From positions 1-35,113 of the IMG/VR virus record IMGVR_UViG_3300032318_001756: a stretch of 35,113 nucleotides of DNA; one strand, 5' to 3'. Made by a program: the position numbers and the translations under genes. A model generated the notes under the pieces. The model was given only the letters and a program-made list of their open reading frames with translations, was not told where the DNA came from and ran no database searches. This DNA comes from a virus (taxonomy: Duplodnaviria > Caudoviricetes). This document shows, one piece after another, positions 28,183 to 30,790 of the stretch (its first letter is position 1; every line of letters begins with the position of its first letter).

Positions 28183-28302
28183 CCCAATGCCATAGCATGA
28201 GGGACTAATGTACGCAAGTGGCAGCGTCGCAGAGTGCGTGTGTATATATGGGTGGGAATGTCATGCGACATTTGTGGGTGGGAGTAGTGAAATAAAATGA
28301 TA

Positions 28303-28327
28303 TAACTCATTGATTCTGAGTGAGTTA
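28303..28327. promoter_or_regulatory. IHF-consensus site within an imperfect palindrome
   Basis: TAACTCATTGATTCTGAGTGAGTTA; the reverse complement of 28303-28315 is AATCAATGAGTTA = WATCAAnnnnTTR. Confidence 0.6.
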
Positions 28328-28435
28328 GAGAGGTGATGTGAACTCAATAGGTGATAAATAGTGTATTTACAACATAGAAAACAATGTCAATGTATGACAT
28401 ACATATAGCATTATATTACATAAAACAGGAAAACA

Positions 28436-28681
28436 ATGGAAGAGATTATTGTTAATGCAATTATTAATCAAGTGGTTATTAAAGAAAAATATGATAACTA
28501 CAGAGAAGCATTTAATGATATGGAACAACAGAATGTTGTGCACCTTGGATGGTTAAATGCAGGTATTAACGTACCAAAGCATTTAAAGTGTGAAAAGGTG
28601 TACAGTAATTGGTCAGGGTCTTCATGCCTATATTGTGATCCTATATACAGAATATCTTATTCTGTTGATATGGGAGATTGA
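28436..28681 (+). CDS. Hypothetical protein
   Basis: 81 aa, A-rich leader, followed by a terminator hairpin. Confidence 0.7.
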   Translation: MEEIIVNAIINQVVIKEKYDNYREAFNDMEQQNVVHLGWLNAGINVPKHLKCEKVYSNWSGSSCLYCDPIYRISYSVDMGD

Positions 28682-28690
28682 TGATATTAT

Positions 28691-28720
28691 AGAGAGCTCT
28701 ATAACAGGGCTCTCTTTTGT
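28691..28720 (+). terminator. Terminator-like hairpin overlapping P1 of twister 1
   Basis: AGAGAGCTCT-ATAAC-AGGGCTCTCT-TTTGT. Confidence 0.7.
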
Positions 28721-28932
28721 TAATGCGTCATTCCTGTTTCCCAAGGACAGGCAATTGTAATAGTAAACCTTCTCAGTAAACTGTATGTACACAGGTGCAC
28801 ATCTGATGTACACAGTGTGGGGTAATGCTATTCTCGTAATAGAAATACAAAACGGAGTTTATAACTCTAAACTGGGTTAGGAAGTGATTCCTTATAACCA
28901 ATTACTATTACAATTGAACGCAGAGGGGCAAA
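28716..28932 (+). ncRNA. Twister ribozyme (type P1) with ~135-nt structured insert in P5
   Basis: P1 UUUGU/GCAAA; U|AA at 28721-23; P2 UGCG/CGCA; UC available to pair with GG of the loop UCCCAAGG; P4 CCUGU/ACAGG; perfect 15-bp P5 28752-28766/28902-28916; conserved GAGGG at 28923-27. Confidence 0.85.
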
Positions 28933-28958
28933 TGTCCTCAGCATGACGTTAAACTGCT

Positions 28959-29265
28959 GAATTTCTAATGCACCATTCTCATGTGGATATGAAGACTTCT
29001 TAGAAAAACAAGCAGAAATGCCTCTGTAGGGAGATGTAAAATAACCGTTGAAGAAACGCCCCTAAGATGTGAAACCACCTGATTAACCAAGCCCTGAGCG
29101 TGAGTATATAACCGTTGGCACCTAGTTAATCAGCTCCCAAGGATGAGACAGTTGTAATGTGTAATGTATTAAGCCAAGTCATGCTTGTATTGAACATTGT
29201 GTTCCACATTAACAAGGTAATACCTTGAGTCTTTACCATTACAACTGAGTGCAGAGGGGAAATTT
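28959..29265 (+). ncRNA. Second twister-like ribozyme with inserts beside L4 and in P5
   Basis: P1 GAAUUUC/GAAAUUU; U|AA at 28966-68; P2 UGCA/UGCA; CC to pair with GG of UCCCAAGG (29135-42); P4 UCUCAU/AUGAGA; perfect 11-bp P5 29149-59/29237-47; GAGGG at 29254-58. Confidence 0.75.
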
Positions 29266-29270
29266 TCTTT

Positions 29271-29365
29271 ATGCATATTGTAACATCAGGGCTCTGTTTC
29301 CTGTCTATGAAGTTTTGCAGAATTGCAAAATGGAGAGAAAGCAATAAAATTGTTACAATGTGCAT
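29271..29365 (+). ncRNA. Unassigned structured RNA element
   Basis: 15-bp closing stem ATGCATATTGTAACA/TGTTACAATGTGCAT enclosing CAGG/CCTG and TTTTGCA-GAAT-TGCAAAA hairpins. Confidence 0.5.
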
Positions 29366-29373
29366 TTAGGAAT

Positions 29374-29413
29374 AGGCTACATATTAGGAGAAATTCTAAT
29401 GTGTAGCCTTTTT
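29374..29413 (+). terminator. Strong terminator closing the ncRNA locus
   Basis: AGGCTACATATTAGGA-GAAA-TTCTAATGTGTAGCCT followed by a T run. Confidence 0.85.
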
Positions 29414-29642
29414 ATTTTGTCATTTATTATTAACCATAAACCGAAAAACATGGAAGGCGTAATTAACCTTTTACTTAGTAGGATGGACTAATCCGTGAAG
29501 CGCAAGTATCTCCATTTGGACCTTTCAACGCGAATATCACCTCTATTGTTTCTTTTTTTGTCACCCTTTAAATAATTGTTTTATGCCATTAGGTATGGAA
29601 AGTGACATTTATGACTATATGTTCTAAATTAAAACCTATAAA

Positions 29643-30049: not shown

Positions 30050-30790
30050 ATGAGAATTATTACACATGATGGAATGTTCCATGCAGATGAGATTTTCGCT
30101 ATCGCTCTTCTGCATGAGGTAATTGAGAATTGTCCTGTTGAGAGAACAAGAAACATCTCAGCAGTGGACTATACAGACAATGATGTATGGATAGTGGATG
30201 TTGGTGGCATCTATGATCCAGAGAAGAATCTTTTTGATCACCACCATGACAAATCTCTGCATGCATCTTGTATATTAGTGCTTAATGAGTTGATGAATCG
30301 CAATCTCATTAGCATGCATTTGTATGAGGAGTTGTACAAAAACTTTCATACCATCTCCCAGATTGATTGTAATGGCTTTCTTGCTGTTAATGGTTTTCAG
30401 GTGAATAGCCTTGTAAAATCATTCAATAGCTTGCCTGATGGGTTTAATATTGCCCTTGAACTAGCTAAATGCTATATTAAGGCTGCAATTGACACTGTTA
30501 ACAAGATTGCAGAGAGTGAGGAGATATGGGAAAGAGGTGAGGACATTAGTAGATACATTAAGTTGTGTGATGCTTTCCCAATTCATTGGAAGAGATACAA
30601 TGATCACATGTTCCTCATCTATCCTAATAGTGGTAAGTGGAATCTCTTAAGCATTGACAGTGAGAATTTTCCTATTGTGTCTAATGAAGCACATGAATTC
30701 CTTCATAATGGGAAATTCATTGCTGTATATGCCAATAAGGAAGATGCCATTGCCTCTGCTCAATTGTCTGCAATGATAGTAGTGGGGTAA
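30050..30790 (+). CDS. MYG1-family (UPF0160, DHH-like) nuclease/phosphodiesterase
   Basis: ITHDGMFHADE, VERTR and VDVGGIYDPEKNLFDHHH signature motifs of MYG1. Confidence 0.85.
   Translation: MRIITHDGMFHADEIFAIALLHEVIENCPVERTRNISAVDYTDNDVWIVDVGGIYDPEKNLFDHHHDKSLHASCILVLNELMNRNLISMHLYEELYKNFHTISQIDCNGFLAVNGFQVNSLVKSFNSLPDGFNIALELAKCYIKAAIDTVNKIAESEEIWERGEDISRYIKLCDAFPIHWKRYNDHMFLIYPNSGKWNLLSIDSENFPIVSNEAHEFLHNGKFIAVYANKEDAIASAQLSAMIVVG

Follow-up and report, generated by a model that had tools for sequence, protein, structure and literature searches.

Why phages and bacteria carry self-cleaving ribozymes is stated as an open question in the sections of PMC6765202 and PMC10085705 available to us. 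The same question is raised by a crAss-like phage genome in which two predicted twister ribozymes, both enlarged by folded inserts, stand one behind the other in a stretch without genes: what would a phage gain from cutting its RNA at this place, and what are the inserts for?

Results

The window, by which we mean the whole 35,113-nt stretch of DNA analysed here, is a partial crAss-like phage record (about 30% complete) and lies entirely in one contig of run X1, its possible source. Its assignment is based on PHROG matches for portal, terminase and capsid and on the Pfam family crAss_MUZ, and its terminase matches those of cr-phage and Cellulophaga phage records at 26-31%. The minus strand carries the portal, terminase, capsid and muzzle genes up to about 27400, small plus-strand ORFs, mostly without assignment, follow from 27691 onward, and the twister pair forms the head of this small-gene arm. 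In phage phi14:2, according to the accessible part of 10.1101/2020.03.07.982082, early RNA is made by a virion RNA polymerase and two early intergenic RNAs are abundant and persistent; by analogy, the small-gene arm of the window may be an early region as well. The DFDxD motif of the virion polymerase was not found in the window's partial record. Upstream of the cassette, a non-coding motif at 28290-28435 is conserved in five other loci (L194, L213, L054, L105 and L070) and is possibly part of an early promoter region. It is followed by an 81-aa ORF (28436-28681, plus strand), which has one orthologue in L289 and another in L194, the latter 88% identical over 66 aa. No sigma-70-like site was found within 28600-29300, and the four terminator-like sites in 4 kb are near the chance number (2.5 ± 1.7). 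A minus-strand ORF of 79 aa spans the ribozyme region and has no Pfam match. About 650 nt past the cassette lies a MYG1-family exonuclease gene (30050-30790, plus strand; PF03690, E 1e-17); no such gene was flagged in the syntenic stretches of five relatives.

The initial annotation had proposed two type-P1 twister cores in this gene-free stretch, and every stem that it named was found in place. The ribozyme region (736 nt) folds with z = -6.6, a value equalled by 0 of 20 shuffles, and the family descriptor used below gave 226 raw matches in 944 kb of loci against 0 when the loci were reversed; the pair is therefore not a chance product. Twister 1 (28716-28932, plus strand) is of a compact type. 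Its P1 is formed by 28716-20/28928-32, P2 by UGCG/CGCA and P4 by CCUGU/ACAGG, L4 reads UCCCAAGG at 28739-46, and GA-GGG lies at 28923-27, with G28923 as the predicted general base and U28721|A28722 as the predicted cut. A P5 stem of 15 perfect bp (28752-66/28902-16) and its multi-hairpin insert together take up 165 nt (28752-28916) in the predicted fold. Twister 2 (28961-29263, plus strand) is of an arm type, with P1 at 28961-65/29259-63, P2 UGCA/UGCA, P4 CUCAU/AUGAG, L4 at 29135-42, P5 at 29149-59/29237-47 (99 nt with its insert, 29149-29247), GA-GGG at 29254-58, the predicted general base G29254 and the predicted cut U28966|A28967. Its largest insert is not in P5: between the 5' strand of P4 and L4 lies a conserved two-helix arm of 152 nt (28983-29134), at a point where compact copies have one bulged U. 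Helix A of the arm pairs 28983-29001 with 29064-29078 and contains a conserved internal loop, helix B pairs 29079-87 with 29125-33, and each ends in a variable slot (slot 1, 29002-29063; slot 2, 29088-29124). The inserts, annotated as structured, are indeed folded in the predictions. Pseudoknot T1, which joins L4 to L1, is CCC/GGG in both copies; T2, two base pairs that link L2 with L4, is UC/GG in one and CC/GG in the other; and the cleavage-site A, the next A, the general-base G and the L4 A are present in both.

The cassette had been described as bounded by terminator hairpins. Downstream, a long predicted hairpin (29264-29372) is followed by a strong terminator-like hairpin with U-tract (29374-29418) in the terminator scan. 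The U-tract of the upstream terminator-like hairpin (28691-28721) is short and doubles as the 5' strand of P1 of twister 1. The same upstream hairpin occurs in L194 with a longer U-tract, and in run X2 it is replaced by 526 other letters. The predicted cuts lie 245 nt apart, as annotated; the second released RNA would be terminator-bounded, as annotated too, and would measure about 449 nt to the U-tract. A linker hairpin (28938-28960) stands directly before cut 2. Hairpins of this kind (CCUGAGCAUG...AAACUGCU type) directly precede the cut in 19 of 159 family copies, also occur apart from twisters and belong to no Rfam family, while a second recurring hairpin (GGUC...CCUUAAAGAC type) holds the same position in 6 copies.

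Judged by sequence and predicted structure, both elements are twisters by the structural definition given in the accessible part of PMC5408937, and stems, pseudoknots, key bases and covariation support both this identity and the predicted cut sites. The same part of that source treats cleavage ends of 5'-OH and 2',3'-cyclic phosphate as established for the class and names P0, P3 and P5 as the optional stems. With the type-P1 twister (Roth et al. 2014, as cited there; RF03160) the phage elements share P1, P2, P4, T1, T2 and the U|A site, as well as the conserved L1 and L4 bases, the general-base G and the optional P5 position. They differ from it in that P5 (24-203 nt) holds long multi-hairpin inserts, in that arm-type copies carry a conserved two-helix domain of 106-258 nt at the P4/L4 junction, which corresponds to none of P0, P3 or P5, and in that RF03160 does not detect them. 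The Rfam search of the window gave nothing at the gathering score and no twister match at E<=10, and RF03160 (twister-P1, gathering threshold 67.2 bits) matched neither the window, nor the compact copy L032, nor 5 records at E<=10. Since L032 is a natural member with a P5 of only 26 nt, the inserts alone do not explain the miss. T2 is GC/GC in the canonical twister and YC/GR in the phage family. By the rules set out in the available text of PMC11662667, both copies carry the features that predict activity, with the exception of the L4 insert of twister 2: in the large twister screen reported there (section 32) L4 insertions reduced cleavage, while location 1 tolerated imperfections, and an insertion of 152 nt is outside the range that this section describes.

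A pattern for the compact core matched 46 viral loci. One for the 5' strand of the arm matched 100 viral, 118 metagenome and 14 genome loci, and those for two other parts matched 119 and 120 viral loci, many of them by chance. A family descriptor that demanded P2 and most of P4 pairing recognised 164 distinct copies (56 compact, 108 arm) in 401 fetched loci. Among the 14 pattern matches in GTDB genomes only L268, L269 and L272, all on short MAG contigs, parse as family members; none was found in 50,697 cultured-phage records, and no family twister was found in Lbo-JY46, whose terminase is the nearest cultured one (40%). In 22 near-complete twister-bearing genomes, 18 of which have a terminase related to that of the window, the 3' core pattern was present once in 15, twice in 3 and not at all in 4. 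Opposite-strand family copies were absent from 98 loci. A literature search, which most subscription papers lay outside, returned no description of this phage twister family; as far as searched, this large family, undetected by Rfam, is a previously undescribed variant of a known ribozyme class.

Because the parser demanded P2 and P4 pairing, the pairing rates of these stems are built in, and the variety of pair types is the evidence. P2 occurs as UGCA/UGCA, UGCG/CGCA, UGUA/UACA, CACA/UGUG and CGUA/UACG, P4 shows up to four pair types per position, and compensatory pairs are found in both. T1 was left free in the search and pairs in 98/106 arm copies and 47/51 compact copies, with compensatory versions CAC/GUG (L002 and L188), CUU/AAG (L172) and CUC/GAG (L186). 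Pair 2 of T2 forms in 164/164 copies, a figure governed by the Y and G that the parser fixed there; pair 1 forms in 149/164, the other 15 having C-A, and changes in T2 are one-sided except for U-A in 2 copies. Other bases left free in the arm-type copies are A1A2 (kept in 103/106) and GA (105/106), and pair 3 of the arm is G-C in 74 and A-U in 31. P1 pairing was 3.36 with its own partner against 2.91 ± 0.07 with shuffled partners. An alignment of 13 hand-picked compact copies, whose relatedness inflates the shuffle test, had 94.6% of cells paired and 12/28 pairs differing on both sides; slid-partner controls of this alignment gave 32-43% pairing. Covariation across related phage contigs, a check proposed in the initial annotation, is present in the stems and in pseudoknot T1. 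Among 135 arm copies, about 11 retain the body although their cut strand is degenerate, so the fold may matter without cutting. Arm-type bodies that lack the cleavage strand and keep L4, P5 and the 3' core were seen in L289 (about 1430-1640), L070, L233, L247 and L336, and that of L289 has also lost arm slot 1.

The tandem arrangement varies between strains. In run X2, from the same study as X1, an 82-nt contig joins 28932 to 29271 at a depth of 17.9, the form with the intervening block having 25.1. Its length leaves no room between the two positions, hence a sister strain lacks the 338-nt block (28933-29270, plus strand) of linker and twister 2. Five close relatives with terminase identities of 77-85% all carry an arm-type copy at the same position; a compact copy stands ahead of it only in G020. 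Across loci with 1-kb flanks, at most 25 of 98 copies, counting the window's two and possibly one double parse, have a same-strand neighbour within 1 kb. Tandem spacing ranges from 102 to 793 nt, leaving aside the L167 pair (18 nt, a double parse) and a 1372-nt pair that exceeds 1 kb, and what separates neighbours varies from nothing (0 nt) to entire genes. In L004, L068, L089 and L180 twisters follow head to tail, the 3' core of one lying 0-4 nt from the next cut site.

At the place orthologous to twister 1, directly after the same hairpin, L194 carries a pistol ribozyme (L194:2313-2381, minus strand; 63.8 bits, E 9.7e-12). The 81-aa gene of this locus is the closest found, and an arm-type twister lies about 0.85 kb beyond the pistol. 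Hatchet ribozymes gave four matches, all on the twister's strand and within about 1.5 kb of it (L003:273-439 plus, L087:3175-3326 minus, G007:118814-118950 and G019:23696-23830); the two with alignments shown, L003 and L087, have long inserts. A scan of 22 genomes for pistol and type II hammerhead, in which no control gave a match either, returned none, and a simple hammerhead pattern occurred in 1/110 loci. In L533 (reverse orientation 6624 and 7077; G027) two hammerhead-like cores lie on the twisters' strand, to which RF02276 gives no score. The ribozyme clusters beside Mu-like phage genes, as described in the accessible parts of PMC10085705 and PMC6765202, likewise bring several classes close together in the same kind of place, whereas the present case concerns lytic crAss-like phages, a direct replacement of one class by another at an orthologous site, and exchangeable inserts.

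The three variable slots, two in the arm and one in P5, are exchanged separately between phages. Arm slot 1 is 92% identical in L131, arm slot 2 is identical at 39/39 positions in L309, and 81 nt of the P5 insert of twister 1 are 84% identical in L016. The segment 29149-29258 (P5 and 3' core of twister 2) recurs with 0-1 differences downstream of different P4 stems in X18, X19 and X4, the X19 scaffold being visibly compact. X18 and X19 are RNA-library contigs and contain relatives' copies only, while the X20 contig is probably DNA, and in it the 5' strand of the arm takes up a hairpin insert. The 157 P5 inserts fall into 130 clusters, several of which mix arm and compact types. The inserts fold better than shuffles, modestly (mean z -0.6 to -1.0), and their loops are enriched in GNRA (42 vs 7.7) and UGNAA-type (11 vs 1.4) sequences; a common sequence, a tRNA or an Rfam match, CRISPR repeat families included, was not found in them. 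The arm is conserved across 20-170 nt of variable insert and its strands covary, with the 5' strand varying in some copies. No free-standing arm was seen: the inspected non-twister matches lacked the partner strand, many of them fell within open reading frames, and Rfam returned nothing for 20 of them. The near-invariant stems (P5 base, arm helices and 3' core) are likely recombination anchors for the exchange or loss of hairpins and whole modules, recombination being the presumed route. A GIY-YIG homing-endonuclease-type gene of 176-177 aa sits inside the arm-type twister, between P4 and P5, in L100 (2211-2741, plus strand) and in L103/L533 (G027; L533:3342-3875, minus strand), and such an insertion could offer one route of exchange. 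The leader of this gene contains sequence complementary to the twister's own core, and L533 repeats part of P4/L4 after the gene.

In 71% of 152 copies the cut lies no more than 10 nt from the end of a hairpin; at four offsets further upstream the figure is 35-39%. Of 130 copies, 70 have an ORF start within 100 nt of the twister's 3' end (a count without control), and 14 meet a terminator first. Taken together, the hairpin before the cut, the replacement by a pistol and the four same-strand hatchets are most simply read as selection for a cut at these places.

Discussion

We propose, with a probability of roughly 0.55, that the twisters would serve as self-cutting punctuation of the early transcript, their conserved stems acting as exchange points for cargo. 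Each twister would cut shortly after a hairpin. This would leave an upstream RNA that ends in a hairpin and a cyclic phosphate, much like a terminated transcript, and in this way the hairpin and cut 1 would finish the 3' end of the 81-aa ORF mRNA; the downstream RNA would begin with a 5'-OH inside a folded body and so might resist decay from the 5' end. Transcription of the locus, cleavage and stabilisation, as we infer them, would yield linear RNAs of 245 nt and ~449 nt here. Speculatively, such punctuation would be required if the phage delivers a polymerase that does not stop at host-type terminators. The intergenic RNAs of phi14:2, as far as described in the accessible part of 10.1101/2020.03.07.982082, are likewise long non-coding RNAs from the early region of a crAss-like phage, but this is a likeness without a sequence link. 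Near-complete genomes have 1-2 twister copies each, too few for punctuation throughout a genome, and punctuation alone leaves the conserved internal loop of the arm unexplained. In folds that omit pseudoknots, the loop of the linker can pair with the P2/T2 strand of twister 1, P2 forming with a probability of 0.89 without the linker and 0.16 with it, and the linker also weakens twister 2 (0.32 vs 0.66-0.69); in such models the linker loop may trap twister 1.

The cargo itself could be the purpose. A possible, if improbable, account is that the cut mainly frees stable non-coding RNAs whose hairpins are shown as decoys or sponges to host RNA-binding or defence proteins. The RNA that would start at cut 2 has no ORF and is terminator-bounded, the inserts are more structured than shuffles and abound in GNRA and UGNAA-type loops, their 130 clusters resemble the outcome of an arms race, and the arm-type copy is kept at its site in all five close relatives. 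Yet the inserts share neither sequence nor a match to a known RNA, CRISPR repeats and tRNA included, over half of the scored copies lead into a nearby ORF while few meet a terminator first, and in L194 a cargo-free pistol takes the place of twister 1. The decoy idea suits twister 2, at the head of this ORF-less RNA, better than the family as a whole, and for twister 2 a linear decoy is compatible with punctuation. An unlikely extension is that the arm-type twister forms a modular self-releasing platform for RNA display, whose three exchangeable slots would present combinatorial hairpin decoys or a host-sensing switch within minutes of the start of infection; reshuffled among crAss-like phages, it would then be a cassette for RNA diversity directed at host defences. 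We regard as doubtful a sensing or docking function of the L4 arm that would put twister 2 under the control of a ligand or protein, with twister 1 constitutive. The arm adjoins both pseudoknots, its covarying strands (pair 3 above) are conserved over the variable insert, and it was not seen alone, the inspected non-twister 3' strands having no partner; against this, identical P5 inserts occur in arm and compact forms, the 5' strand of the arm varies in some copies and accepts a hairpin in X20, ligand-related gene context is absent, and the arm may merely stabilise the fold.

Two further accounts carry still less weight. The modules could for the most part be passengers, selfish or neutral, that recombination and homing endonucleases have spread through a plastic region, as gain and loss within one population, GIY-YIG genes inside the twisters of L100 and L103/L533 and the degenerate copies might suggest; compensatory pseudoknot changes, near-invariant catalytic bases, the fixed position in 5/5 relatives and the pistol, a ribozyme of an unrelated class, that takes the site of twister 1 in L194 make this quite improbable. 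Still less credible is the circular RNA raised in the initial annotation, for which the tandem would be built to excise a 245-nt piece that an RtcB-type ligase closes. The two predicted cuts would yield a 5'-OH and a cyclic phosphate, both termini are free and close together in the predicted fold, a Bacteroides control genome carries RtcB, and the linker could prevent re-cutting of a circle by breaking up the core (-65.7 vs -55.9 kcal/mol in folds without pseudoknots). A purpose-built circle is nevertheless unlikely because the pair is not fixed between strains: the sister strain has no twister 2, only 1/5 close relatives has the tandem, at most 25/98 copies have a neighbour within 1 kb, and the spacing of 102-793 nt sometimes includes genes. 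Selection for an end-closing P1 was not visible either, cross-P1 pairing in 15 tandem pairs being 2.6, under the random 2.91, and RtcB is rare in these phages (1/47 phage records, 1/22 near-complete). Moreover, the 245-nt piece keeps nearly all of ribozyme 1 and supplies a new U, so that a ligated circle could cut itself again. In the Tornado twister/RtcB system for synthetic expression of circular RNA both ribozymes are cut away and the ends are closed by a stem. The window resembles Tornado in its two tandem twisters and, by prediction, in its 5'-OH and cyclic-phosphate ends, and differs in that the excised piece retains ribozyme 1; the conserved ribozyme pair with an end-closing stem that marks Tornado-like or retrozyme-like designs was not found.

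The punctuation reading with exchangeable cargo has a parallel in the PeSL cassettes of T4-like phages, which, in the accessible part of PMC4122927, are likewise short, conserved regulatory motifs of a plastic early region at which unrelated modules are exchanged. Here too indels and exchanges are bounded by a conserved motif; a composite promoter and terminator repeated through plastic regions was not found. PeSLs are promoter/terminator DNA motifs, whereas the phage twisters are catalytic RNAs, 1-2 per genome, with exchanged parts both within the RNA and next to it. The natural controls available, namely one population with and without twister 2, a pistol orthologue for twister 1 and identical inserts in arm and compact scaffolds, make the effect of the cut separable from that of the cargo. 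The arm also marks a new domain insertion point (P4/L4, 100-260 nt) in a ribozyme widely used for RNA engineering.

A long-range pairing of AGCCCUG (29090) with CAGGGCU (28705 and 29287) was considered and rejected, the same slot in one locus, L309, having no partner within 3 kb. The P5 base may resemble Bacteroidota CRISPR-repeat stems, and the UGAAA element of the arm may resemble a T-loop. Slot 2 (29088-29124) holds AAGCCCUGAGCGU, a sequence similar to the 3' half of the pistol consensus in Rfam, and the insert in P5 of L011 is similar to parts of the hatchet consensus; the inserts may thus include fragments of other ribozymes.
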